30,357 bases of DNA. Source: an uncultured Methanosarcinales archaeon. Its GTDB lineage: Archaea > Nanobdellota > Nanobdellia > Woesearchaeales > CAZPDB01. This document shows, one piece after another, positions 13,021 to 30,357 of the stretch. The notes under the pieces were generated by a model, which had not been told where the DNA came from, made no database searches, and saw nothing but the letters and a program-made list of their open reading frames with translations. The stretch spans positions 2,839 through 33,195 of the forward strand of contig CAZPDB010000004.1 of the NCBI GenBank assembly GCA_964585285.1, read 5' to 3'. The number at the start of each line of letters is the position of its first letter. The stretch's first letter is position 1. Made by a program: the position numbers and the translations under genes.

Positions 13021-16000
13021 CTATTCTATAATTTTCACTTCTTGCCAGAGGATTCTTCTTTGTTCTCCATCTTCATTAATAGTTATCATAACCGGATAAA
13101 TTCCTGGTTTGGTTCCCGCTGGTATTCTCACTGCTCCCACTTTAGTCACTCTTTCATCATGTTCCAGTTTGAATGGACCGTATTGTCTGTACACCCCTAA
13201 CTCTGGCAGGGCAATTAACACTTTTGTCTTTCCCATATCATAATAATCATTATTTCTGAAATTTACACTCACCAACAAATCTTCTCCTGGACGTACTTCC
13301 CCTCCGTTGATAAACTCTACAAGAGAGAGATAGATTTTTCTTCTTGGCAGATGCTCTTTAGGAGGTACCATCACCCTTATCGTGAATGATTGTCTGTCAT
13401 TACTGGTATTCCCTCTTGTTCTAGCTTCAACTACTACTTTGTTGCTTCCTACTTGCTTCTTCTTTGGTGTCCAGACAATTAAACCATTTTTTTTATTAAT
13501 GGTCATGCCCCCTGGCTTATCTACCAGTTCATAAATTATTTCTTCTCCGTCTGGATCTACTGCATCCACATCATATTTGTATACTGAGTCAAACTCATTA
13601 GGATCATCAATTAAAAAGTCAGTTATTGGGGTGGAAATAATTCTCACTCCCCTATCCATCTCTCTCACCCTTACTTCAACAACTTCTTCCACACTATGAT
13701 TGCCATCACTCACCCTGACCACAAATTCATAGACTCCGCTATCTTCAAATCCAGTCTGCCATTCAAATCTATTTCCCACACCTTCTAAACTAACTTGTTT
13801 AAATCTAGTGTCATTAATTGAATAAATAAGTTCTTCCTTGGGAGTTTCTTCATCACTGGCATTGATAATAATGACTGCTGTCTCATTTTCCAGCACATCT
13901 AAAGAACCATAAATAGAATTTATTTCCGGAGCATCATTTTCAGGGTTAATAGTTAAAATAAATTCTGATTCAGCAGCCAAGTCCCACACCTTTGCTTCTA
14001 TCTTAAGGCTGGTGTTGCCATAGACATTCTCATAACTATTACAATCAAGATAATGTTCATTAATAATTGAGCAGGAAACTACTCCTTCATTGCTTGTATT
14101 GGCTGAGAATTCCACCAAACTACTATCATAAAAAGTTAAATAATCCCAAAGGTTTATTTGCCAGTTGCCAAAGTCTTCACTCAAATTTACATTTGGCATC
14201 TCTTCTAAGATCAATGCTGGAGAACCAACATTGACAGGAATGATTTCTTCCACTCTTCTCTCATCCGCATCTATCACTCCCACTCTAATCTGGCCGTTTC
14301 CCGGAGCTTGAGACCTCACTCTTAGGCTTTTCTCACCCTCACTAACATTTACAGTCTCAACTTCAAATACGCCTTCACCACCTTCAGTTATTATTTCCAT
14401 TTCAATTTCTCCTTCTATATCCCTGGCTCTCACAGTTACATTTTCTCCTTCTGGCAGTATTAAATTAACCTCATTAGGGCCTATTTCTATTTCTGGTGGA
14501 TTGTTAAGAATTTCTAAATCCATTTCCCATGAATCTTCTAATGTATAAGGCATTGAAACAGGCATTGAAACCAGCCTATAACCAATCTTTAATTCACCCT
14601 CTCCAGTCTCTGCTGTTACTGGAAGGGTTATCATAGCTGAGAAAGTCTCTTCTTCAAGGATGATATCATTCTCATTAATACTGAATATTTCATTTCCTTG
14701 AGAATCATAGATTGTTAAGTTTAGTTCACCTTCTCTGTGATTAACATATTCTTCGTCAAGATGATTATATATCTTAAAATTAATTTCTTCTTCTCTACCC
14801 CTATAAATTTCTTCAGCTAAGGAGCCTATTTCCAAACTTAATCCTGTTTCAATCACTTCATAACTAATCTTGTCCATTATCTGGTAACCTTGGTATTCAA
14901 GAGTAAAGCTAATCTCGTGTTCTCCTACACCAGAAACTATCCACGAACCAGAACAGGTTCCATCCTTATCAGAAGAACATTCATCCTTTTCTACTCCATT
15001 ATCATTAAAAGTAATTTCTGCTCCTTCAGCTGGATTATTATCATAATCTATTATAATCTCGCAGGTTTGTCTTTCTCCTTCAACCAGCCTGTCAAAAAGG
15101 CAAGTAGCAGAATAATTTATTTTCTCTGGGTCAAAAGATTCAATAACTTCAACTTCAAATTCAGTTTGAGCACATTCTTGGTCTAAATCACAGACTTCCA
15201 CACTTATTTTAATCTCTCCTTCTGCTAAAGCTTCTATGATTAGAACTTCTTCTTCAATCCTTGCTCCTACTATCTCATTATCCTCTACATCAATAACTTT
15301 CCATTCCAGAATTTCTTGATCTTCAACATCAACTGCCTTTCCTTCTAAATTAATTTCTCTTCTTTCTTCAATTTCTAATTCCAACTCTTCAAATTCTCCA
15401 ACAACCTCTGGAGGATTGTTCATGACCATGATAGTTACTTCTCTTTGTCCGCTGGTTTCATCTTCAAAATTAACTGCAAATGTTTTTAACAAAGTTTCGT
15501 CAATAAAATCATGATTAGCCGGAATCACTCCTTCAAACCTATAATAATCACCAACCAATCCCTCAGCATCCAACTTCAACTCTCCGCCAGCACTACTTCT
15601 TAAAACTGCGCTGGTCACAATGCTTTCATCACTCACCAACACATTCCCCTCATTCAAATCACGAACCCTAAAACTAACATAAATATCTCTGCTCCGATAA
15701 AACTCATCACTCTCCACACTATAACCACTATCATTATACACTCCCAAATCAGTAATGTTATACCTGGAACTAAACACACTATAACCAAAACTAGGCTCAT
15801 CATCCAAATCAGGCACAAACTCAGGGAACAACTGAGCAGTAGCATAAACCTCATAATCTCCCAGCTCCTCCTCTGTCCAGCTCGCACTACAACCACCACT
15901 CAACTCATCAGTCAAACACTCACCAACCCAAACATCATCATCCCTAACTCCAACCATACCATCCTTCTGATAAAAATTAACTTCCACCCCTCCCACAGAT

Positions 16001-19000
16001 GTTTCTCCTGCATTAACCATCACATTACAAGTCTGCCTTTCATCAACTGTCACAATCTCATCACAATCAATACTCTCCACTTCCAACTCATTACCCCTAA
16101 CACTAACCCCAACAATTTCTTCATCAAAATCCCCATCAAGATCAACCAGATGCAAAACAACATCAGCTTCACCAACACTCTCCCCAACCAAACTCAAAAT
16201 CTTTCCTCCTCCAAGATTAACCCCAACCACATCTTCATCAAAATCAACCAACTCCCAACTCAAATTCTCCCCACTATCCTCCAAATCAAACTCATACTCC
16301 TCCAAATTAAACAATCTCTCCTCACCCACTCTTAAATCAATCTCACCTAAATCCCAACCAACAACCTCTGGAGGATTGTTCATGACCATGATAGTTACTT
16401 CTCTTTGTCCGCTGGTTTCATCTTCAAAATTAACTGCAAATGTTTTTAACAAAGTTTCGTCAATAAAATCATGATTAGCCGGAATCACTCCTTCAAACCT
16501 ATAATAATCACCAACCAATCCCTCAGCATCCAACTTCAACTCTCCGCCAGCACTACTTCTTAAAACTGCGCTGGTCACAATGCTTTCATCACTCACCAAC
16601 ACATTCCCCTCATTCAAATCACGAACCCTAAAACTAACATAAATATCTCTGCTCCGATAAAACTCATCACTCTCCACACTATAACCACTATCATTATACA
16701 CTCCCAAATCAGTAATGTTATACCTGGAACTAAACACACTATAACCAAAACTAGGCTCATCATCCAAATCAGGCACAAACTCAGGGAACAACTGAGCAGT
16801 AGCATAAACCTCATAATCTCCCAGCTCCTCCTCTGTCCAGCTCGCACTACAACCACCACTCAACTCATCAGTCAAACACTCACCAACCCAAACATCATCA
16901 TCCCTAACTCCAACCATACCATCCTTCTGATAAAAATTAACTTCCACCCCTCCCACAGATGTTTCTCCTGCATTAACCATCACATTACAAGTCTGCCTTT
17001 CATCAACTGTCACAATCTCATCACAATCAATACTCTCCACTTCCAACTCATTACCCCTAACACTAACCCCAACAATTTCTTCATCAAAATCCCCATCAAG
17101 ATCAACCAGATGCAAAACAACATCAGCTTCACCAACACTCTCCCCAACCAAACTCAAAATCTTTCCTCCTCCAAGATTAACCCCAACCACATCTTCATCA
17201 AAATCAACCAACTCCCAACTCAAATTCTCCCCACTATCCTCCAAATCAAACTCATACTCCTCCAAATTAAACAATCTCTCCTCACCCACTCTTAAATCAA
17301 TCTCACCTAAATCCCAACCAACAACCTCTGGAGGATTGTTGAGTATCATCACTTCAACATCTCTTTGCCCGCTTGATTTGTCTGTATAATTGATGACCAG
17401 ACTTGTTAAGATACTTTCATCAATAAAATCATGGGTTAATGGGATTCGGGCTTCATAATGGTACCAGCTGTCAGAGAATCCTTTCTTATCAAATTCAAGC
17501 ACTCCTCCTGCTGCCGGGCTGCTTAGTCTTACTTCGCTCACTACTTCATTCTCAATTAGTTCCCCTGTAAATATCTCTTCTACTTGGAATCTGACATAAG
17601 CCCACTCTCCTCTGTAAAAAGTTTCATCTTTAGTGCTGAAATCAGCATTTTTTGAGATTTCCAGATTAGTGATATTATATTTTGAACTATAGACTTCAAA
17701 GCTGGCTGTTGGTTCTTTTAATTCCCAATCTTTAAACCCATCTTTTTCAGCTCCAGCATAAACAGTCCATTCTCCCAGCCTTCCCGGACTAAAAACTACT
17801 CCGCAAGCTCCAGTAATCTCATTTGTTGAACAACTACCTAAGCTTTCATCATTATCATAATTATAAAGTTCAACTTCTACCTCTCCAATCATTCTACTAT
17901 CAGCCTCTATCTTAGCATTGCATATCTGAGTGTTATCAACAGTCATTATAGGGTGAGCACAGTTAAGAGAAACAATAACTAATTGATTATCAAGCACCTC
18001 CACTCTAAAGATTCTGGCTTCCATTCCTTGGTCACTATCTACCACAGTCACAGTTATCTGGCTTGTTCCCTTAGCTTTTCCTTCTATCACCAATTCTTCG
18101 CCCAACACTTCTACTCCTACTATGTCCTGAGCAGAACTTTCTGCAGTGATAATTAATTGGCCATACTCATCTTCCAAATCACTAATTTTCTCTCTCAGGT
18201 TTATTCTTTTTTCTTCTCCAGTGTATAATTCAATATCAGAAATGTCTCCTATCTCTGGTTCGTTGTTCCAGAGATAAATCTCTTTGCTTCCTTGACCAGC
18301 AGTATTATCAATAAAATTAAAGGCAAAACTAAAGACCTTGCCTGGCTGGTTCTCATCTGTTGTTAAATAATCATCTGTTAATGGGATTGCTTCCAGATAG
18401 TATCTATAATATAATTGTTCTGCTGATATTTGGGCTAAGGCTGGAGAACTTAAAGTTGAAGCATCTTTATAACTTTCTACTTGTCTTACAAACATCCCGC
18501 TTCCTACTGGTTCTAACCCAATAAAATCAAAATAAAGTGGCTCAGCATTTTTCATTCTCAAGAAAACTTCTGTCACTACTTCCTCATTCACAAACTCTCC
18601 ACTGAATTTGTCTTTAACTTGGAATTGAACAAAGACCTGATCTCCTCTGTAAAATTCATTTACGCGATTAACAAAATCACTCTCATTATAAGTGTCCAGA
18701 TTAATTATTTGATATTGTTCTGCCCAGACTTTGAATTCTTTTTCTGTACTGCTCCTTGCTGATTCATATCCTTCTTTCTCAGCTTCAACATAATAACTGT
18801 AATTTGCTGGTTCAAGATTAATCACTGGTTCAATTATGACATAACCATAATCATCTGTTTCTCCACTACCAATACTTGTGCCATCTCCTAGTTTGAATCC
18901 AACCTCTGCCCCGGTAACCATATATTCTTCATCATCACTAGTGCTCACTCCAACCCTAGCTGTGCAGTATTGTTCTTTTCCCTGAACCACATTCGGATTA

Positions 19001-22000
19001 CAGCCAAATTCTTTTATTTCCAGTTCTGCTCGAACAGTTATTGGTTTAGTGATTTCATCACTTAATCCTCCCTTATCAGTCACTTCTAAAATAACATCAT
19101 AAACACCCGGCTCTTCATAAACATGACTCACTCCCACCCCTTCACCATCTGAACCATCACCAAAATCCCATTCATAACCAACAATATCCTCACAATTTCT
19201 CCCTTCACAATCAGGGTCAGCGCTTTCTGAAGTAAAAACCACCTCTTCAAAAACAAGTGGTTCTAAAGGTTCATAAACAAAATCAGCTTCAGGCCTATCA
19301 TTAACATTAACCACCCTAACCAAAACATCCTCACTCACAACCCCACCATCAGTATCATTAACAACAAAACTTATTATCTCTTCATCATCAACAAATCCTT
19401 CTAAAGGAATAATAGTTGCCACCCTATTAATTATCTGCACCCCGACATTTTCACTCCCAGAAGCACTCCATAACAATTCCTCATCTGGTGTTTCCACATC
19501 TTCAACATAATCATCTAAAACCAAATTCTCTACCTCATATTCACCAATCCTTACCACTTCAGGTAAACTCACACTTGGCAGATTATTATAGACTCTCACA
19601 CCCAAATCTTCCTGACCAGCTGTGCCATCTTCCAGATTAAAAACAAAACTAAACACCTTGCCCTCTCCCAAAAAGTCATCAGTCAATGGTATTGACTCCA
19701 AATAATAACGATAATAAACAGGTCCCTGACCAGCACTATTAACCTCAGAATATTGTTCTCCAATCATCACATAAGCACCTACCTCTTCCAAATATTCTTC
19801 AAAATAAAGAGGTTCATCATTATTCACCCTTAAGAAAACCTCCTTTAACAAACCCGGATCATCAACATAATCACCTGAAAACAAATCAACAATCTGGAAT
19901 TGAGCATAAACAGAATTACCCCTATAAAACTCCCTAGAAGATGTAATAAACTCATCTGAATAAACATCAAAATTAGTAATATTATACTGGTGTTCCCAAA
20001 CCCTAAACTCAAACAGCTCTGATTCTCCAGCTTCATAACCTTCCTTTCCAGCTCTAACATAAACTCTCTCTAACCCCGGCTCCCTCTCAATCACTGGATT
20101 AATATGACCATAACCTTTGAAGTTTGTCTCTACCCTACCCAATTCTTCTCCATCCTCATAAAAGAATATCAACTCTGCTCCCTCAACCGCAAACTCCCTA
20201 TCAACCAATTCAACTTTTGCACTGCAATGCTGAATCTCACCCCGAACCACGTTAGGATTGCAGCCAAACTCTTCTAATTTCAAAGCCCCACTTACCTGCA
20301 CACTCTTAACTATCTCATCACTTAATCCTCTCTTATCAGTCACTTCTAAAATAACATCATAAACACCCGGCTCTTCATAAACATGACTCACTCCCACCCC
20401 TTCACCATCTGAACCATCACCAAAATCCCATTCATAACCAACAATATCCTCACAGTTTCTTCCTTCACAGTCTTGGTCATGAGAAATTGATCTAAAATTA
20501 ACTTCATCCAAAACTACTGGGTTGAGTGGTAAATAAGCAAAATTAGCTTCAGGCCTATCATTAACTGGTTTAATAATAATCTTAAACCCTTGAGTGACAA
20601 TATTTTTACCATCAGAAACAATTAAGTCAACATTGCAAATCCCATTAAAATTAATTTCTGGGTGGATATCTAGATAATTTCTTTCATCAACCATTGCTCC
20701 GCATCTTTCGTCATCTTGTTCAAGGGAATATTCCAGGTTTCGGCTTGGTGTCTCTGCATCAATAACATAATCTGGGAAATAAAGAAGGTCATTTTTTTGT
20801 TCATCCTCATCCATAAAAATATCTTCAATCTCTTCAATCACTGGAGCATCATTAACCCAATCAACTGTTACTTGGACTGGCTCAGAATAAGCAAAAGCTC
20901 CTTCTGGATCAACCACCTTAAAAACCAGTTCTTCTCTTCCATCCCAATTGGTTTCCGGTTCTATTCTTATTAAGTGTTCTTCACTATTTGGGATAACATC
21001 CACAGTTAGATGCCTGTGCTCGCCAGTTTCCTCTACTTCCAGTGCAGAGTCAGCATCATCTTCATCATTTATGTAAGGATCAATATCAAATTCGTAAACT
21101 TCATCTTCCTGCATATTGATATCTGGGATCTTTGTAAACATTGGCGCTAGATTATTTTTTCTCATTGAAACATAAATATAATAATCAGCAAATCCTAAGT
21201 CAAATTCTCCTGAGTTTTTGGTATAGTCTGGATGGACAATTTCATAGATATATTTTCCAGGTTCAAGATTAATTCTTGCCTCTCCCTGTTCATCACTGAC
21301 TGCATTCCAAATATCAGATCTAGACTCCGTGTTTATTACTTCAACTGAAGCTCCTTCAATTGCATTGTTCGTATCAATCTCCTTAATCAAGAAATTCACA
21401 TCATAGGTTGGGACTGGCTGAACATAGATTTCTTCTTCCAGAGTCTCTTCAAAATTATTTAATCCCTCACAAAGATTGCTCTCTCCCAGACCTCTAACTC
21501 GGATAATATACCGGCCAGTTTCTTCAGGAGTCCAGCTAAAACTTATCTCTGTTGGCTCATAAGCATCCGCATTCTCTTCCACTACCAAATCGTTTTCAAA
21601 AACAATCTCTCCTGTTTCTTTTTTAACAATCTCATAATTAACCCTGGTTGGGATTGGTGTGTATTGATCAAGATTATCCATATAATTGCTTGTCTTTTTA
21701 TAATATATAGTTAGTTCATCTCCAACAATTGGGAACTGTTCATCTGTTCTTAGATTATTCAGCAAAGTATAACATTGTCCCACTGGCCTGGCTGGCAGCA
21801 CATTGAAATTTTTATTAGTGCTTTCTGTTTCAGCACTCAAACACTGACAATCAGTCACTTCTGATTCTAAGACTGCTTTATAATTTTCTCCAGCTATAGT
21901 TGGTGTCCACATAAACCTTATTGTTTCATGTGTGTCCATGTAGATATTTAATTCCCTGCTATCCTCATAAACCATTTCTCCTTCTGGATTATAAATCTTT

Positions 22001-22614
22001 AAACGAACAATTGTCTCTGCGCTGTAAAACTCTTCTTTATACTCTTCAGGGATGTAATGTGGTGCTCTTCCAGAGGAATGGAAAGCTGAATAAGTTTCTG
22101 CATCCAGTCTGGCATCTACTTCCACTACTAATGGTTCATTTTCGTGAACAGTATTAATAATAGAAAAATCTTCAATTGGCGCGTGGCAATTTTCTGCTTT
22201 ACCTAAGTAATGGTCATAATAATAACTCATCCCTCCCCCCCAATTATTAGGTATTACTCCTCTCATTGGAGCATAGCATTCTTTGAATAAATAAATAGCA
22301 TAATCTCTTGGTTCAGAAGTGTAAGGATAAACTATTGTTACAGAGTTTTCTTCTCCAGAATTATCATTAAAGATGGGTGGTTCTTTTACTGCCCAGCACT
22401 GTTCCAGATTGTCTTCACATTCATGAACAATCATTTGCACCCCATTTAATGGTTCTCTACTGTATTGGTCATAAAAAGAATCCACTTCTCTGTTGCCGTC
22501 AGCTAAAACTATTGGTAAAAAAATCAGAACCCCAGTTAAGATAATTAAAAATAAAATATTTTTTTTGAGTGGGTTTGTTTTCATTTTAGTTTTCACCATC
22601 ATAATCTTCACCAT
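13021..22614 (-). CDS. Giant (3197 aa) secreted adhesin-like protein with PKD, cadherin-like and repeated Ig modules
   Basis: Signal peptide (true start may be 22584), two PKD domains (YEWDFGDG..SHVYEEPGVYDV), many NDAP/NNPP..DxD cadherin-like units, six FYRG-type modules, CARDB-like C-terminal domain, no C-terminal TM. Confidence 0.9.
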   Translation of the reverse strand: MVKIMMVKTKMKTNPLKKNILFLIILTGVLIFLPIVLADGNREVDSFYDQYSREPLNGVQMIVHECEDNLEQCWAVKEPPIFNDNSGEENSVTIVYPYTSEPRDYAIYLFKECYAPMRGVIPNNWGGGMSYYYDHYLGKAENCHAPIEDFSIINTVHENEPLVVEVDARLDAETYSAFHSSGRAPHYIPEEYKEEFYSAETIVRLKIYNPEGEMVYEDSRELNIYMDTHETIRFMWTPTIAGENYKAVLESEVTDCQCLSAETESTNKNFNVLPARPVGQCYTLLNNLRTDEQFPIVGDELTIYYKKTSNYMDNLDQYTPIPTRVNYEIVKKETGEIVFENDLVVEENADAYEPTEISFSWTPEETGRYIIRVRGLGESNLCEGLNNFEETLEEEIYVQPVPTYDVNFLIKEIDTNNAIEGASVEVINTESRSDIWNAVSDEQGEARINLEPGKYIYEIVHPDYTKNSGEFDLGFADYYIYVSMRKNNLAPMFTKIPDINMQEDEVYEFDIDPYINDEDDADSALEVEETGEHRHLTVDVIPNSEEHLIRIEPETNWDGREELVFKVVDPEGAFAYSEPVQVTVDWVNDAPVIEEIEDIFMDEDEQKNDLLYFPDYVIDAETPSRNLEYSLEQDDERCGAMVDERNYLDIHPEINFNGICNVDLIVSDGKNIVTQGFKIIIKPVNDRPEANFAYLPLNPVVLDEVNFRSISHDQDCEGRNCEDIVGYEWDFGDGSDGEGVGVSHVYEEPGVYDVILEVTDKRGLSDEIVKSVQVSGALKLEEFGCNPNVVRGEIQHCSAKVELVDREFAVEGAELIFFYEDGEELGRVETNFKGYGHINPVIEREPGLERVYVRAGKEGYEAGESELFEFRVWEHQYNITNFDVYSDEFITSSREFYRGNSVYAQFQIVDLFSGDYVDDPGLLKEVFLRVNNDEPLYFEEYLEEVGAYVMIGEQYSEVNSAGQGPVYYRYYLESIPLTDDFLGEGKVFSFVFNLEDGTAGQEDLGVRVYNNLPSVSLPEVVRIGEYEVENLVLDDYVEDVETPDEELLWSASGSENVGVQIINRVATIIPLEGFVDDEEIISFVVNDTDGGVVSEDVLVRVVNVNDRPEADFVYEPLEPLVFEEVVFTSESADPDCEGRNCEDIVGYEWDFGDGSDGEGVGVSHVYEEPGVYDVILEVTDKGGLSDEITKPITVRAELEIKEFGCNPNVVQGKEQYCTARVGVSTSDDEEYMVTGAEVGFKLGDGTSIGSGETDDYGYVIIEPVINLEPANYSYYVEAEKEGYESARSSTEKEFKVWAEQYQIINLDTYNESDFVNRVNEFYRGDQVFVQFQVKDKFSGEFVNEEVVTEVFLRMKNAEPLYFDFIGLEPVGSGMFVRQVESYKDASTLSSPALAQISAEQLYYRYYLEAIPLTDDYLTTDENQPGKVFSFAFNFIDNTAGQGSKEIYLWNNEPEIGDISDIELYTGEEKRINLREKISDLEDEYGQLIITAESSAQDIVGVEVLGEELVIEGKAKGTSQITVTVVDSDQGMEARIFRVEVLDNQLVIVSLNCAHPIMTVDNTQICNAKIEADSRMIGEVEVELYNYDNDESLGSCSTNEITGACGVVFSPGRLGEWTVYAGAEKDGFKDWELKEPTASFEVYSSKYNITNLEISKNADFSTKDETFYRGEWAYVRFQVEEIFTGELIENEVVSEVRLSSPAAGGVLEFDKKGFSDSWYHYEARIPLTHDFIDESILTSLVINYTDKSSGQRDVEVMILNNPPEVVGWDLGEIDLRVGEERLFNLEEYEFDLEDSGENLSWELVDFDEDVVGVNLGGGKILSLVGESVGEADVVLHLVDLDGDFDEEIVGVSVRGNELEVESIDCDEIVTVDERQTCNVMVNAGETSVGGVEVNFYQKDGMVGVRDDDVWVGECLTDELSGGCSASWTEEELGDYEVYATAQLFPEFVPDLDDEPSFGYSVFSSRYNITDLGVYNDSGYSVESDEFYRSRDIYVSFRVRDLNEGNVLVSDESIVTSAVLRSSAGGELKLDAEGLVGDYYRFEGVIPANHDFIDETLLKTFAVNFEDETSGQREVTIMVMNNPPEVVGWDLGEIDLRVGEERLFNLEEYEFDLEDSGENLSWELVDFDEDVVGVNLGGGKILSLVGESVGEADVVLHLVDLDGDFDEEIVGVSVRGNELEVESIDCDEIVTVDERQTCNVMVNAGETSVGGVEVNFYQKDGMVGVRDDDVWVGECLTDELSGGCSASWTEEELGDYEVYATAQLFPEFVPDLDDEPSFGYSVFSSRYNITDLGVYNDSGYSVESDEFYRSRDIYVSFRVRDLNEGNVLVSDESIVTSAVLRSSAGGELKLDAEGLVGDYYRFEGVIPANHDFIDETLLKTFAVNFEDETSGQREVTIMVMNNPPEVVGEFEELELEIEERREINLEGKAVDVEDQEILEWKVIDVEDNEIVGARIEEEVLIIEALAEGEIKISVEVCDLDQECAQTEFEVEVIESFDPEKINYSATCLFDRLVEGERQTCEIIIDYDNNPAEGAEITFNDNGVEKDECSSDKDGTCSGSWIVSGVGEHEISFTLEYQGYQIMDKISYEVIETGLSLEIGSLAEEIYRGREEEINFKIYNHLDEEYVNHREGELNLTIYDSQGNEIFSINENDIILEEETFSAMITLPVTAETGEGELKIGYRLVSMPVSMPYTLEDSWEMDLEILNNPPEIEIGPNEVNLILPEGENVTVRARDIEGEIEMEIITEGGEGVFEVETVNVSEGEKSLRVRSQAPGNGQIRVGVIDADERRVEEIIPVNVGSPALILEEMPNVNLSEDFGNWQINLWDYLTFYDSSLVEFSANTSNEGVVSCSIINEHYLDCNSYENVYGNTSLKIEAKVWDLAAESEFILTINPENDAPEINSIYGSLDVLENETAVIIINASDEETPKEELIYSINDTRFKQVSLEGVGNRFEWQTGFEDSGVYEFVVRVSDGNHSVEEVVEVRVREMDRGVRIISTPITDFLIDDPNEFDSVYKYDVDAVDPDGEEIIYELVDKPGGMTINKKNGLIVWTPKKKQVGSNKVVVEARTRGNTSNDRQSFTIRVMVPPKEHLPRRKIYLSLVEFINGGEVRPGEDLLVSVNFRNNDYYDMGKTKVLIALPELGVYRQYGPFKLEHDERVTKVGAVRIPAGTKPGIYPVMITINEDGEQRRILWQEVKIIE
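15398..17340. repeat. Exact in-frame tandem duplication, 960-bp unit (320 aa)
   Basis: Line-by-line comparison of 15398-16380 with 16358-17340 found no mismatch. Confidence 0.97.
19055..20472. repeat. Pair of near-identical 158-bp PKD-core repeats (19055-19212 and 20315-20472)
   Basis: Offset 1260 bp; 4 mismatches, all transitions; flanks diverged. Confidence 0.93.
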
Positions 22615-22642: not shown

Positions 22643-25231
22643 TTAAAACTTATTCTCTTCAAGCTCGCCTCTACCTCCACTTACCCCTCCTCCACCAATG
22701 CTTTGTTCAGCAGTTGCTCCAATGAATATAATATAGTTTGTTCCTAATCTTACTATGCTTTTCCAGGCTTCTGTTTGGCGGGTTTTAAATTCTTCCAGAT
22801 CAAAGGTAGCGTTGTCAAGATTGGTGGTGAATCTGCCCTGCCCATTTTTAAAAGCTACTGCCACTAAATTATCTTTATCATCAACCAACATCATCGGTAT
22901 TTCTTTGTAATCAGCAAGCATTGTTTCAAAAGCTTCTTTGGTTATACTTTCTGGTTCAAGATAATCTTTTTCCACTATTTTCTTTTCTCTAAAGCCATTT
23001 CTCACTCCAAAAAAACCATTTTTTCTTGCTTCTTCTATCTCTCTTCTGTCAGTTAAACGAGATGGATGTACTTTCTCCAATACTGCTCTTGTCCTTCCTT
23101 CTTTTGCCGCTTCTTGTTTTGGGATAATTTCTATCTGAGCATCACCTACAGAAGGATTAGCTAAATCTCTGGACATGCCTTTTCCATAGATGTTAATTTG
23201 GTGTCCTGGTTCAAACATTACTAATTGGTATTTTGTGCCTGCTGGTGCGCCACTAATTTCTTTTTCATAAATAGGCAGTCTCTCGTCTTCCACAGATTTA
23301 AGGATCTCTCCCAGATCTTCTTTAACTGCTTCTCTTGCTGCATCATAAGCTTCTTTGGTTGTTCCTCCCCTAAACAAGATTTGAGCCAGAGCTGTTGGCA
23401 ATCTTCCTTCCTTCATATATTCACCTGCTTTAATTATGTCTCCAGGCAGATTAAGGCCGTCAAGAATCACTTCTGCTGGTTTGCCTCCTGCTTTTCTCAC
23501 AGCTCTTCCAGGTAAACTAATAATTTTACCTGCTTTTCCAGCTCCTTTTTTTAAAGCTTTGATTGGATTAGAACCTTCTCCACCACTTTCCTCAACCACT
23601 CTGCTTTCTCCTCCTTCATTCCACTTTTCAAAATAAGTTGGGAGTGGGTTATTAACTACACCTTCCAGGTATCCTTGTCTCACTTTTTCTCTCTCACTTT
23701 CTGGCGCAAAATTCCTTGCCCAGATATCTGCTCCCTGCCTTAAATATTCTCTTAACCAAGGCTCTGCTTCTTCTAACTCTCCTTGTCCTTCAGCAGTCTT
23801 GTACATTTCACAGAAAGTTTCCATAAATCTCTCTTCAGCAGATGATCCAAATAAATTTTTAAAGAATTGGACAGCTGTTTTTGAATTTGGTTTTTTTCCC
23901 TGCACTATCCTTTCCAAATCCTCTTCAGAATAACTTGGTGAATAATCATCCAGAGCAGCAAAAATATCTTCTTTCTGTTTTTTCCTAATTTGTTTTTCTT
24001 CCTGCTGCGTTGACAAGCTTATTTTTTCTGGTTGGTCTTCTTTTACTTCTTTTGATAGGATTGGGGTAGTTATTTCTTGTTCTGGTTCAAAACTTTCTAA
24101 ATATCTTCCTAAATTTTCTCCCTCTAATTCTATCTCTGCTCCAGCTTTAACTCTCTGAGCTAATTCCTGGCCTCTTTCCTTGGCTTCTAAAACCTCTTTC
24201 TCTGAGCCAAAGCTTCCCAGATAATCCATTAAGCAATCATTATTCTCTTTTTCCCAGCATTCTTTGCCTTCCAAAACTGTCAGCAACCAGAGATTTTGCA
24301 GGGCTGTTCCCTCGTATTTTTCTCCAAGATTTTCCCTAACCATAGGATCTTCATTCTTAGTTTCTTGTTGCAGTACTGCTTTATACAATTCTTTTCTTGA
24401 TTCAAAATCAGAGGAGAGATTTTTTGATTTAAGATAATCAACTATTGAATTTTTATTGATTCCATCAATTCTTCCTTGTTCATCCTGAGTTTGTTCCTGC
24501 TGAATTTGCTCCACTCTTATGTTTTCACTCTTATTTTCATTTTCTGCACACACCTGACTTAGAGGTAATAAAGAGCTGGAAATTAATAATCCCGCAGCCA
24601 CTAAACCAGCAGCTGCTTGCCCCCAACCTTCTCTTGCATATCTGTTTATTCTCTTCAGTAAACTTGATTCATCTTTTCCTTTATCATAATTTGCTTGAGT
24701 GTGGCTTGCTTGAGTGCGGGTTTTACCAACAGCATCATCAATAGAAATACCAGTATAGGTTGCCTCTGGTTCTCCAACAGAACCTTCAACAGAGGATTCT
24801 AATTCTCCCGGTTCAATCAATTCCAGAGAATTTGCTGGTAAAAGATATTCTTTTAAATTTGATCTGGTTCTGTCAGCCATACTCCTTAATCGGGTATGGA
24901 CATTTTTCTTGTTTCTTTTTAAATAATTGTTAGAATTAACTTCATTGGTTAAGAGCTCATTAACAACTGCCAGGTCTTCTCTCACTTCTTCATTTATTTC
25001 TTCTGGAGCCAATTGAGTTAAGTAATCATCTAGACCTTCTAGTTTCTCATTAAGATATTTTTCCCTCTCTGTCCATTTCCATGCTCTTTTGCCGTCAGCC
25101 CGGTAATTTCCTGAAAGAATTTGAGCAACATCATCAATATATCCTCTTAAATTTTCTCTGGCTAAAGAATTTGATTCATAATTAGCTGTGTAATCATCTA
25201 AAATTGAATTCCTTGTAGCAATAATCCCCAT
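22643..25231 (-). CDS. 862-aa membrane protein of unknown function with a DUF3597-like motif
   Basis: About 200-aa N-terminal region, one hydrophobic helix (aa ~202-229), then NSIVDYLKSKNLSSDFESRKEL..YEGTALQNLWLL, and a Gly-rich C-terminus. GGGGGTAG SD-like sequence. Confidence 0.75.
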   Translation of the reverse strand: MGIIATRNSILDDYTANYESNSLARENLRGYIDDVAQILSGNYRADGKRAWKWTEREKYLNEKLEGLDDYLTQLAPEEINEEVREDLAVVNELLTNEVNSNNYLKRNKKNVHTRLRSMADRTRSNLKEYLLPANSLELIEPGELESSVEGSVGEPEATYTGISIDDAVGKTRTQASHTQANYDKGKDESSLLKRINRYAREGWGQAAAGLVAAGLLISSSLLPLSQVCAENENKSENIRVEQIQQEQTQDEQGRIDGINKNSIVDYLKSKNLSSDFESRKELYKAVLQQETKNEDPMVRENLGEKYEGTALQNLWLLTVLEGKECWEKENNDCLMDYLGSFGSEKEVLEAKERGQELAQRVKAGAEIELEGENLGRYLESFEPEQEITTPILSKEVKEDQPEKISLSTQQEEKQIRKKQKEDIFAALDDYSPSYSEEDLERIVQGKKPNSKTAVQFFKNLFGSSAEERFMETFCEMYKTAEGQGELEEAEPWLREYLRQGADIWARNFAPESEREKVRQGYLEGVVNNPLPTYFEKWNEGGESRVVEESGGEGSNPIKALKKGAGKAGKIISLPGRAVRKAGGKPAEVILDGLNLPGDIIKAGEYMKEGRLPTALAQILFRGGTTKEAYDAAREAVKEDLGEILKSVEDERLPIYEKEISGAPAGTKYQLVMFEPGHQINIYGKGMSRDLANPSVGDAQIEIIPKQEAAKEGRTRAVLEKVHPSRLTDRREIEEARKNGFFGVRNGFREKKIVEKDYLEPESITKEAFETMLADYKEIPMMLVDDKDNLVAVAFKNGQGRFTTNLDNATFDLEEFKTRQTEAWKSIVRLGTNYIIFIGATAEQSIGGGGVSGGRGELEENKF

Positions 25232-26811: not shown

Positions 26812-29800
26812 ATGGTTGAAAAAGAAACTTCTCCAGAAAAAAAAGGAAAAAAAGAAGTCAGAGAAGAATCAGAAACAGGAAAAGAAAAAGAAGAGATTAA
26901 AAAAGAATCAGCAGAGAAACCAGCAGATGAGTCAACAGGAGAATCAAAAGAAGAAGCCAATGTAGAGGAAGAAATCACCCTTGATTTTTCCAGAGTAAAG
27001 AACATTTTTCGCCGGAGAAAAAAAAAGGATGAAAAGCTTAAACAAGAACTGGAGGATGTTGAAGAGGAAGTTAAGGATGAGGAAGAATCGCTTCAAGAGG
27101 AGATTGAACAAGGAGAAGAATTAATTGGAGAAGCCAAGCAAAAAATTTCTGAAGATAAAAAAAGAATCCGACAGCTTAAAAAAGAAGAGGAAAAGATTGG
27201 AAAAGCTGAAAAAGAGATTGAAGAACAGACTGAAGAGGATTTTGAAACTGCTCTTGATTTTTCTAAACTCAAAAAATGGTTCAGCCATTTAAAAAAAGAT
27301 GAGGAAAAAGCGCCTGGTGAAGCAGGAAAAGAAGAAAAAGAAGCTGAAGAATTATCTCTGGATCTTAAAAGCACAGCCCGATTCTTCACCCAACCTAAAG
27401 TGTATATCCCTCTTTTGATTATTATTGCTATGTTCTTTGCTGTTTTTTTTAGAGTCCAGTCTGCTTATCTTCCTGTTACTGATGATTGGGCTAAGAGCAC
27501 TGTTGAGAATTATTTTAAATCTCAATTAATGGGGCAGATTAATCAGCAAAATCCTCATCTGCCTCAGGAAAACAAGCAGATTCTTCTCCAGCAAAAATGG
27601 ACAGAATATAAGAATCAGAATAAGAAGATTATTAATGAGCAGATTTCTCTTCTTTCTCAGCAGTACAAAGAGGTTTTTCAGGATGACCAAACCGGGCACA
27701 CTTATCTTTTAGCTATTGACCCTTATTATTATTTAAGGCATGTTCAGCATTATTTGGAGAATGGTCAGGCCGGCACTACTTATATTGGCGGCGATTATGG
27801 GGTTAGTGATGATATTAAGTTATATTTTACTGGCCGGGATAAGGAGTTTGATTTCAGCCGAGCTCTTGATTGGGATGGACAGCGAATGGCACCTATTGGT
27901 TCTCCTTCTAAGATGAATCTGCACACTTATTTTGAAGCTTATTTATACAAGTTTGTTCATTTTTTTAATCGTGATCTGCCTCTAACCACTTTAATTTTTT
28001 ATATCCCTGTTATCATTTCTTCTTTAGCTGTCATTCCTGCTTTTTTTCTGGGCAGAAAGATGGGAGGTAATGTTGGCGGTTTGTTTGCTGGAGTGATGAT
28101 TGCTGTTCATTCTGCTTTTATTAACCGAACTGCTGGTGGTTTTGCTGATACTGATGCTTATAATGTCTTTTTTCCCTTGCTTATTGTCTGGATCTTCTTA
28201 GAAGCTTTTGAAACAACTAATCTTAAGAAAAAATTTGGTCTAACCATTCTAGCTGGTTTCTTCACTGGCTTGTTTGCTTTTGCCTGGTCAGGTTGGTGGT
28301 ATATTTTTGATTTTATTCTTGGCGCCATGGTCATTTATTTGCTTTATGATATTTTTATTTATAGGAAAGAGATTAAAAGAGGTTTGAGGAATTATCTCAC
28401 TCAGACTACCATTAAAAACACTCTTTTAATTTTTATTGCTTTTATTTTATTTGCTGGTTTGTTTGTGACTTTGTTTAAAGATTCCAGTAATTTTATCCAA
28501 GCTCCTTTCCAACCTATCATCAGAGCAAAAACTCTCAAGACTGTGGGCGTAGTTACTATCTGGCCTAATATTAAAACCACTGTGGCTGAGCTTAATCCTG
28601 CTTCATTAAAAGCTATTATTAATCAGATGGGAGGCAAGTTTTTATTTTTGGTTGGTTGTTTAGGCGTTCTTTTGTCTTTTATTAAAAAAGATAGGTTTGG
28701 CAAGACAGATATCAAATATGCTATTATTATTTTAATTTGGTTTATTAACACTATTTATATGAGCACTCAGGGTGTCAGATTCACTTTATTGCTTGTGCCT
28801 GCTTTTTCAGTTGCTTTTGGTGTTGCTGTCGGAATTATTTTCAACTACTCCTCCAAATGGGTTTCTAAAGAGCTTAATATGAACAAGGTTCTTGTCTCAA
28901 TAGTACTTTTTGTTTTGCTCTGTCTCTTGTTTATTAAACCAATGAAGATGGCGCAGGCCACTGCTCAACAAGAGATTCCCAGTATGAATGATGCCTGGCA
29001 TACTGCCTTAACTAACATCAAGACCAATTCCAGTCAGGATGCTATCATTAACAGCTGGTGGGATTTTGGTCACTGGTTTATCACTCTTGCAGATAGAAGG
29101 GTAACTTTTGACGGTGGGGGCCAGGATAAGCACATGGCTCATTGGGTAGGAAAAAGTTTGTTAACTAATACAGAGGAGAAAACTATCGGAATTTTAAGAA
29201 TGGTTGATTGCGGTAATAATAACGCTTTTTGGGCTCTTAATAGCCTTATTAATGATACAGTCACTTCTATTGATGTCCTCAATGAGATTATTGTTCTGGA
29301 TAAAGAAGAGGCCACAACAACTCTTGCTCAATACATTCCTCAGGAAAAAATAGATCATGTTTTGCAGTATACTCACTGCCCACCCCCTGAAAATTATTAT
29401 ATCACTTCAGATGATATGGTTGGTAAGGCTGGTGTTTGGGCTCATTTTGGCAGTTGGGATTTCAAACGGGCTCTAATTTATCATACTCTTAAAAAGAAAG
29501 CGTATAAAAATAATCAGGCTAAAAGTGTTGAATTTCTTAAGAACAAGTTTAATTACTCCCAACAAAAAGCAGAAAATTTGTTTTATGAGGTTCAATCTAT
29601 TGGTTCTAATAAAGAGGCTAATTCTTGGATTGCTCCTTGGCCTAGTTATCGCGGTCAGTCTAATTGTCAGGAAACAAAAGAGGGTATTTTTGAATGTAAT
29701 AACGTCCGGGTCAACTGGCATAATCTTACTGCTACTTTAACTACTCAGCAGGGTTGGGTTAAACCAGCTTCCCTTGTTTATCCTACTGCTCAAGGTGTTG

Positions 29801-30357
29801 AGGAGAAGAAGTTTGATTCAGATGTTCCTTATTCAGTCATCTTCATCAAAAAGAGGAATTCTGCTCAGGTTGTTCTCTCTGATCCAGCTCTGGCTGCCAG
29901 CACTTTCACTAAACTTTATTTCTTTGAAGGCCATGGTTCTAAGTTCTTTGATTTATTTGACTTGCAGACAGCGCCTACTGGCACCAGAATTTATGTTTGG
30001 CAGGTTGATTGGCAAGGCCTGGGCAAGTATCTTAATCCTGCCTTTTTACCTTTAAAAGAAGTGGAAATTGAACACTTGCTTCTTTGCCATAATGAATCTG
30101 TTATGCCTTGCCCTCTTAATTTAACCAAGCAGCAAGCACAAGAACAGGCTGAGGAGATTTTAGAAGAGCTTCCTCAATACAATTATTCTTTCCAGGATTA
30201 TAAACAAGAACATAATCAGAGTGTTATCTATGAATATTTGGGTTTCATCAGTCAAGAATCTCCTTTAGATCCTCATTTTCTTGAGGCTGCCTTGCCCCTT
30301 TCTGCTCAGGAGATTTCCAGTATTGTTGAGACCCAGTTTGGTTTTCATCTTATCAAA
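26812..30357 (+). CDS. aglB: Oligosaccharyltransferase AglB (STT3 family) with charged N-terminal extension and C-terminal parvulin-like domain; 3' end outside window
   Basis: Manual frame-1 translation is open for 1182 codons: AIDPYYYLR, GFADTD (28147), TVAE (28579), GVRF, SWWDFGHW (29056), DMVGK (29413), IYVWQVDW. Absent from the ORF track because there is no stop in the window. Confidence 0.97.
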   Translation, partial: MVEKETSPEKKGKKEVREESETGKEKEEIKKESAEKPADESTGESKEEANVEEEITLDFSRVKNIFRRRKKKDEKLKQELEDVEEEVKDEEESLQEEIEQGEELIGEAKQKISEDKKRIRQLKKEEEKIGKAEKEIEEQTEEDFETALDFSKLKKWFSHLKKDEEKAPGEAGKEEKEAEELSLDLKSTARFFTQPKVYIPLLIIIAMFFAVFFRVQSAYLPVTDDWAKSTVENYFKSQLMGQINQQNPHLPQENKQILLQQKWTEYKNQNKKIINEQISLLSQQYKEVFQDDQTGHTYLLAIDPYYYLRHVQHYLENGQAGTTYIGGDYGVSDDIKLYFTGRDKEFDFSRALDWDGQRMAPIGSPSKMNLHTYFEAYLYKFVHFFNRDLPLTTLIFYIPVIISSLAVIPAFFLGRKMGGNVGGLFAGVMIAVHSAFINRTAGGFADTDAYNVFFPLLIVWIFLEAFETTNLKKKFGLTILAGFFTGLFAFAWSGWWYIFDFILGAMVIYLLYDIFIYRKEIKRGLRNYLTQTTIKNTLLIFIAFILFAGLFVTLFKDSSNFIQAPFQPIIRAKTLKTVGVVTIWPNIKTTVAELNPASLKAIINQMGGKFLFLVGCLGVLLSFIKKDRFGKTDIKYAIIILIWFINTIYMSTQGVRFTLLLVPAFSVAFGVAVGIIFNYSSKWVSKELNMNKVLVSIVLFVLLCLLFIKPMKMAQATAQQEIPSMNDAWHTALTNIKTNSSQDAIINSWWDFGHWFITLADRRVTFDGGGQDKHMAHWVGKSLLTNTEEKTIGILRMVDCGNNNAFWALNSLINDTVTSIDVLNEIIVLDKEEATTTLAQYIPQEKIDHVLQYTHCPPPENYYITSDDMVGKAGVWAHFGSWDFKRALIYHTLKKKAYKNNQAKSVEFLKNKFNYSQQKAENLFYEVQSIGSNKEANSWIAPWPSYRGQSNCQETKEGIFECNNVRVNWHNLTATLTTQQGWVKPASLVYPTAQGVEEKKFDSDVPYSVIFIKKRNSAQVVLSDPALAASTFTKLYFFEGHGSKFFDLFDLQTAPTGTRIYVWQVDWQGLGKYLNPAFLPLKEVEIEHLLLCHNESVMPCPLNLTKQQAQEQAEEILEELPQYNYSFQDYKQEHNQSVIYEYLGFISQESPLDPHFLEAALPLSAQEISSIVETQFGFHLIK

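Follow-up and report, generated by a model that had tools for sequence, protein, structure and literature searches.

DUF3597 (PF12200) is described in reviews as a putative, uncharacterised binding domain (PMC11674121, PMC12996196). In lysins, the C-terminal part of the family forms a repeat of about 49 residues with the pattern xSIVDYLKSxGxDSSFxxRKxLAxxYGIxxYxGTAxQNxxLLxKL, known for example as D2 of the Listeria phage endolysins PlyP100/Ply511, as residues 153-197 of Ply118, and as tandem repeats in the Amidase_2 lysins of Bacillus subtilis and Bacillus pumilus phages. Here, a copy of this module is described in P0002, a protein of 862 amino acids encoded in a 30,357-nucleotide stretch of DNA (the window; contig CAZPDB010000004.1, positions 2,839 to 33,195, assembly GCA_964585285.1) from an uncultured archaeon of the order Woesearchaeales. 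The P0002 copy retains all conserved residues of the lysin-type repeat. Unlike most of the lysin repeats collected, it is single; it also bears an insertion, has no recognisable catalytic partner and sits on an archaeal protein that is probably anchored in the membrane.

Among the possible hosts or partners of DPANN archaea, bacteria have been suggested chiefly because of enzymes with SLT (lytic transglycosylase) domains. Two papers already report murein-targeting enzymes in DPANN archaea and Nanoarchaeota together with a possible interaction with bacteria (PMC8204110, PMC12352652), and the former describes large extracellular SLT proteins in Woesearchaeota and Pacearchaeota. P0002 resembles both these SLT proteins and the modular archaeal peptidoglycan hydrolases of the Woldo/Danwoldo type (PMC12352652) in placing bacterial-type wall-targeting parts in archaea without murein; it differs from the Woldo/Danwoldo type in having no catalytic domain and falls outside the definition of that group. 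Since neither PF12200 nor PF11860 is on the domain list of the survey (PMC12352652), hydrolases with DUF3597 were left uncounted there. Judged mostly by the titles and abstracts of papers that mention DUF3597, no publication on this family in archaea was found. The novelty is modest: a module already known stands in an architecture that is new, and a small set of archaeal hydrolase fusions had previously gone uncounted. The finding lends modest support to the published idea that DPANN archaea touch bacterial walls. It adds the DUF3597 repeat as a second, independent bacterial-wall-associated part in a DPANN lineage, here beside a giant adhesin, and in relatives the module is part of secreted enzymes of the M23, muramidase and SleB-like types, which the recent survey could not detect.

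Identity of the Module

The initial annotation had noticed, just after a membrane helix, a DUF3597-like peptide interrupted by an insert. Translation of the minus strand over 24272-24451 reproduces this peptide exactly, NSIVDYLKSKNLSSDFESRKELY...YEGTALQNLWLLTVL, as residues 261-320 of P0002, and the module starts 35 residues past the only hydrophobic segment of the protein. The parts of the gene are as follows.

22643..25231, minus strand: P0002 gene, open reading frame (ORF) of 862 amino acids from the ORF list, stop codon included
24827..25207, minus strand: N-terminal domain, residues ~9-135, motif ILSGxYxxDGKRxWxW, presumably cytoplasmic, without Pfam match
24554..24622, minus strand: single hydrophobic segment, residues 204-226, Kyte-Doolittle 19-residue maximum 1.88
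24386..24454, minus strand: first half of the module, residues 260-282, KNSIVDYLKSKNLSSDFESRKEL, helix 1, loop and start of helix 2; positions 2-24 of the hidden Markov model (HMM) described below, 22.4 bits
24320..24385, minus strand: lineage-specific insertion, residues 283-304, replacing 7 profile positions (AxxYGIK)
24269..24319, minus strand: second half of the module, residues 305-321, KYEGTALQNLWLLTVLE, HMM positions 32-48, 8.9 bits
22646..24268, minus strand: orphan C-terminal region, residues 322-862, presumably extracellular, without recognisable domain

The assignment is carried by an HMM that was built from 295 bacterial and phage copies of the module, taken from 121 of 328 relatives of the amidase protein described below, without archaeal sequences. 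Searched against P0002 as one sequence, this HMM aligned both halves in order, positions 2-24 and then 32-48 (30.7 bits, E 1.3e-11), and over the 14,703 six-frame ORFs of the genome P0002 was the sole significant match (E 1.9e-7; the next was 0.71). The second half contains the Y-x-G-T-A-x-Q-N-x-x-L-L loop and helix 3, and its Y, G, Q, N, L and L columns are invariant or nearly so. The R, N and L that are invariant across 94 sequences are all present in the P0002 module. The insert is real as well: its 22 residues stand in place of 7 profile positions (net +15), and none of the 295 bacterial copies, which are 42-55 residues long, has an insertion of comparable size.

Other searches led to the same family. 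In PHROGs, phrog_2307 ('L-alanyl-D-glutamate peptidase') matches across both halves with E 3e-6. An exhaustive phmmer search with residues 250-340 against 1.8 billion representatives returned two true relatives, namely a fragment of an Amidase_2 protein, in which the module occurs three times, and a Peptidase_M15_4 protein, in which it occurs twice; a further match, P0003, was rejected as a low-complexity artefact. Single copies from the two bacterial relatives clear the Pfam cutoff (32.5-35.1 bits), and a six-sequence alignment has 17 invariant columns, the archaeal copy being 42-53% identical outside the insert. In Pfam itself, DUF3597 came out as the top family, in agreement with the match that the initial annotation had made by eye, with 18.6 bits for the whole of P0002, 19.9 bits for the excised region and 21.4 bits in a six-frame search. 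These scores stay under the gathering threshold of 29.8 bits, and the first half alone is aligned, because the insert splits the match.

PDB 2GQB is the one solved structure matched by the profile of 94 modules (E 5e-6). This protein, RPA2825 of Rhodopseudomonas palustris, is a stand-alone DUF3597 protein and is matched over residues 68-109; in contrast to the P0002 module, it is a free protein of 130 residues that carries an additional portion at its N-terminus and has no GTA-x-QN half. An AlphaFold (AF2) model of residues 256-326, made with the 94-sequence alignment, reached pLDDT 80 and has four helices, at 8-14, 21-35, 41-47 (in the insert) and 55-65 in the numbering of the modelled segment. 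In the model, the insert lengthens helix 2 and adds a short helix, with pLDDT 74-75 there. The fold matches are weak, if consistent with the family. The top match among viral proteins (BFVD) is annotated as a 'DUF3597 domain-containing protein' (probability 0.99, 35% identity, TM 0.55), with a weak E of 0.13. The module of P0002 is very probably a genuine, diverged lysin-type DUF3597 repeat, homologous to those located behind the catalytic domains in murein hydrolases of Bacillales and phages.

The stretch at residues 334-343 (LMDYLGSFGS) was considered as a degenerate second copy and dismissed, since it scored -3.7 bits; a kinship to CW_7 (PF08230, the Cpl-7 repeat) was likewise dismissed (hhalign probability 1.2%). 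The two repeat types occur side by side: behind Amidase_2, some bacterial lysins have tandem arrays made up of both CW_7 repeats and DUF3597 modules (P0089, P0105, P0085, P0111, P0121 and P0122).

The Module in Bacteria and Phages

The module had been said to occur appended to bacterial and phage wall hydrolases, and the records agree. About 305 annotated phage records contain it, 214 of Bacillus and 88 of Listeria phages, in amidases, L-Ala-D-Glu peptidases, transglycosylases, 3D-domain proteins and one tape measure protein. Among them are Ply118, with the module at residues 153-197, and the Ply511/PlyP100 type, with it at 205-248; in PlyP100, D2 (residues 199-251) is the DUF3597 module, with the HMM match at 205-248. 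In Ply118 and Ply511, the cell-wall-binding domains reportedly recognise Listeria peptidoglycan. In the protein collection, the partner domains are Amidase_2, Amidase_3, VanY/M15_4, GH25, PG_binding_1 and CW_7, and all 121 bacterial carriers collected are murein-specific enzymes. In the dissection of PlyP100, D2 improved the lysis of some substrates and was required for full activity on live cells (PMC12221725). For a module shared by hundreds of Bacillus and Listeria phage lysins, this dissection suggests that it is no simple high-affinity anchor.

The closest phage match to the archaeal module lies in the tail tape measure protein of Bacillus phage vB_BcoS-136 (MH884508.1, 82376-82528; 37% identity, E 3e-3).

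Archaeal Carriers in the Same Order

The module profile was run against 401 genomes of the order to which the archaeon belongs and matched in 13, the source genome included, always in large ORFs. In a sample of 401 genomes of the phylum, matches at E<=1e-4 were confined to the same order. When the archaeal copies were rescored with the bacteria-only HMM, the best was that of genome G385, which is canonical and uninterrupted and present in two copies (73 bits), followed by that of G223 (32 bits). Nearly all archaeal carriers start with a signal peptide or an N-terminal anchor, and in three of them a murein hydrolase domain lies downstream of the module.

L008:865-3057, minus strand: G223 carrier, module and Peptidase_M23 (88.9 bits), HxxxD and HxH intact
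L013:874-3012, minus strand: G157 carrier, module and N-acetylmuramidase PF11860 (70.6 bits), in a closed single-contig genome
L006:526-3075, minus strand: G385 carrier, two modules and a SleB-like Hydrolase_2 domain (22.9 bits, sub-threshold)

These fusions have cleavable-looking signal peptides, a shared N-terminal region of about 450 residues and a catalytic C-terminus; the G385 and G157 proteins have their first ~530 residues in common, and their catalytic ends differ. P0002 has the same module, probably also outside the cytoplasm, and 106 of its residues, among them 30 upstream of the module, can be aligned to the G385 protein at 33% identity. In contrast to the fusions, it has a presumably cytoplasmic N-terminal domain, an internal anchor and an orphan C-terminus. 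The company that the module keeps across three domains of carriers is typical of a part that targets murein as a substrate.

In a FastTree tree of the module, which has 49 columns and low resolution, the P0002 module clusters with those of G385, G230 and G164 (support 0.81). The GC content of the P0002 gene is 0.376, compared with 0.354 for the genome. The grouping with other archaeal copies and the genome-like GC content argue against a recent one-off import.

In G162, a secreted giant protein of 3023 amino acids without any Pfam domain (L026:1109-10180, minus strand) has a partial module at ~389-420, near its N-terminus. A match in G091 (L017) is regarded as a false positive, as it lies inside an asparagine-synthase/diphthamide-synthase reading frame.

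Topology and Flanking Regions of P0002

The hydrophobic segment at residues 204-226 is probably a type II membrane anchor with the N-terminus inside and the C-terminus outside, to judge from the 5 K/R on its N side and the 2 K/R and 5 D/E on its C side. The module is likely to lie on the outer face of the membrane, because of this charge bias and because the N-terminal domain recurs in JAB/MPN proteins that have no transmembrane segment. The protein as a whole is strongly charged (119 K/R, 156 D/E), and its sequons, 3 compared with 4.8 expected, show no enrichment.

The N-terminal domain (ILSGxYxxDGKRxWxW...NKYLxK) was also found in five other genomes of the order. The proteins concerned are highly charged and have no hydrophobic segment in the same hydropathy scan. 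Two of them begin with JAB/MPN 'GHSH' (metalloprotease) motifs, and the gene in G021 directly follows a ThiF/E1-like ORF. The motifs and this neighbour hint that the N-terminal domain may be tied to a ubiquitin-like system.

L003:634-1824, plus strand; L022:1-2952, minus strand; L021:1339-3003, minus strand; L023:1-1866, plus strand; L024:370-1983, plus strand: genes of the N-terminal-domain relatives

As judged by its sequence, P0002 is an orphan except for the module and the N-terminal domain. A search for full-length homologues returned P0002 alone, and none was found among 40 genomes of the same order. The orphan part, presumably outside, measures 540 residues. Pfam, NCBIfam and PHROGs gave nothing for residues 322-862, the scores of an ESM Atlas search with residues 440-862 were in the range of noise (<=0.78), and the PDB sequence matches of the whole protein (HypK, Fab chains) were not significant. 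A single-sequence AF2 model of residues 195-460 was uninformative (pLDDT 44).

Wall-Related Genes of the Genome

The source genome (1.0 Mb, 90% complete, 35% GC) is small, which fits a DPANN-type archaeon. It encodes two proteins with SLT lytic-transglycosylase domains (58.5 and 34.4 bits). In one of them, an N-terminal anchor is accompanied by a catalytic motif that looks intact, QES...GLFQF.

L018:715-2592, plus strand (G000 contig C54): larger SLT protein with N-terminal membrane anchor, running off the contig end
L019:230-1204, minus strand (G000 contig C74): second SLT protein

Searches of this genome, at 90% completeness, detected neither M23, muramidase or SleB domains nor a Mur ligase, transpeptidase or MraY-type transferase. 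With no wall-synthesis genes detected, nothing indicates that the archaeon builds its own wall for the module to bind, and the hypothesis of a self-wall target was rejected as far as a genome of this completeness allows.

Proposed Function and Alternative Explanations

P0002 is most likely a single-pass membrane protein, N-in/C-out, of a small-genome DPANN-type archaeon, and about 35 residues outside the membrane it would display one intact, insert-bearing DUF3597 module of the endolysin type. The module may make a low-affinity contact with bacterial peptidoglycan or with a polymer attached to it. Such a weak contact could become effective through many anchored copies, or through cooperation with the neighbouring giant adhesin and with secreted SLT transglycosylases, and the outcome would be that the archaeon is held against a bacterial wall or that wall-cutting enzymes are positioned on it. 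The chances that the module contacts a bacterial wall are judged to be about even. This target is plausible because of the hydrolase fusions in the same order, the two SLT proteins and the lack of detected wall-synthesis genes. The initial annotation had likewise supposed that the protein may bind a bacterial envelope; the M23, muramidase and SleB-like fusions and the SLT proteins favour that idea, and the binding experiment with PlyP100 does not, as D2 contributed little to the binding of Listeria walls.

Several observations weigh against a wall-binding role. No ligand has been published for any DUF3597 module (PMC11674121). In the dissection of PlyP100, little D1+D2 came down in the pellet with autoclaved Listeria cells, and D3 sufficed for binding (PMC12221725); this is the sole bench test of the module type, and it places the main wall binder elsewhere. 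Two or three copies are present in 114 of the 121 bacterial carriers compared with the one of P0002, and in P0002 no catalytic domain was recognised by Pfam, NCBIfam or PHROGs. Through the insert, the binding surface may be changed or lost, and a module near the membrane is in a poor geometry for reaching another cell. The anchor segment is rich in Ala, Gly and Ser and of moderate hydrophobicity, and full-length proteobacterial DUF3597 proteins such as 2GQB have no attached hydrolase. On the side of the family assignment, the weak structural alignment with 2GQB (Z 3.1, 30% identity), which was not outstanding by Z in VIA-align wide, belongs here, as does a Foldseek search against the PDB, which gave no matches.

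The PlyP100 results also suit another explanation, in which the module is real and extracellular and serves as a helical spacer, a positioning part or a protein-protein contact domain rather than a wall binder. The role of P0002 would then lie in the envelope of the archaeon itself, where it might, for instance, organise or anchor the giant surface protein encoded next to it. Such a role agrees with D2, which contributes little to wall binding although full activity on live cells depends on it, as well as with the single copy near the membrane and the position of the gene 28 nt upstream of the adhesin gene in a cluster of four surface-protein genes. Against it, the module accompanies at least four unrelated catalytic types of murein hydrolase in bacteria, phages and the archaeal order, which is typical of substrate targeting, and tandem modules are the sole non-catalytic part of many Bacillus phage lysins (PMC11674121); this explanation is considered rather unlikely. 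That the module is directed at a polymer other than bacterial murein (pseudomurein, S-layer glycans of an archaeal host, or chitin), and so says nothing of bacterial partners, is quite unlikely. Those DPANN archaea whose hosts are known live as episymbionts on other archaea (PMC8204110); some wall-binding domains, such as LysM, bind chitin too (PMC12352652), and no ligand of the module has been published. However, bacterial murein is the substrate of the archaeon's own SLT enzymes and of the partner domains found in its order (M23, N-acetylmuramidase, SleB-like), the murein specificity of the collected bacterial carriers holds for 121 of 121, and no link to pseudomurein-binding repeats was seen.

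An equally low probability is given to a P0002 that lies in the cytoplasm or at the membrane periphery, with residues 204-226 forming no membrane helix and the module acting as in the free-standing proteobacterial DUF3597 proteins, whose role is possibly related to stress; the family is mentioned in a paper on the general stress response of Sphingomonas, and 2GQB attests to the stand-alone form. The Ala/Gly/Ser-rich segment with its maximum of only 1.88, the high charge, the few sequons and an N-terminal domain common to cytoplasmic proteins would be in keeping with this, whereas the lysin-type Y-x-GTA-x-QN-x-x-LL half of P0002 is missing from 2GQB, signal peptides or anchors are present in nearly all other archaeal carriers, the charges around the segment agree with N-in/C-out and the gene stands among surface-protein genes. 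That a short helical motif matches by chance might be argued from the Pfam scores and the empty Foldseek search against the PDB. Such a coincidence is effectively refuted by an independent HMM that matches both halves in order far ahead of any other ORF of the genome, by the PHROG match, and by the 17 invariant columns and the identity outside the insert.

Within the wall-contact explanation, P0002 might act as a transmembrane coupler, in which the outer module recognises the murein of a partner and the helix relays the contact to the cytoplasmic domain. This more specific idea is improbable. The cytoplasmic domain in question is fused elsewhere in the order to JAB/MPN deubiquitinase-like domains and occurs beside an E1-like gene. 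If it were true, the lineage would sense or dock onto bacteria, probably ones with exposed walls, and not archaea, and contact would be tied to a ubiquitin-like system.

Gene Neighbourhood

The giant adhesin that the initial annotation placed next to P0002 is indeed there. It is a surface protein of 3197 amino acids with an N-terminal hydrophobic leader, and its gene starts 28 nt downstream of the P0002 gene on the same strand. The two genes are probably co-transcribed. Two more surface-type proteins are encoded beyond the giant protein, so that the P0002 gene stands in a cluster of four surface-protein genes. Upstream of P0002, divergent genes encode a geranylgeranyl-reductase-like flavoprotein and an STT3/AglB protein fused to a parvulin domain.

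13021..22614, minus strand: giant surface protein of 3197 amino acids, with PKD_4, PKD, He_PIG, Big_9, bMG3 and Cadherin_5 (cadherin-like) matches
26812-30357, plus strand: STT3/AglB oligosaccharyltransferase with C-terminal PPIC-type rotamase domain (Pfam), running off the window

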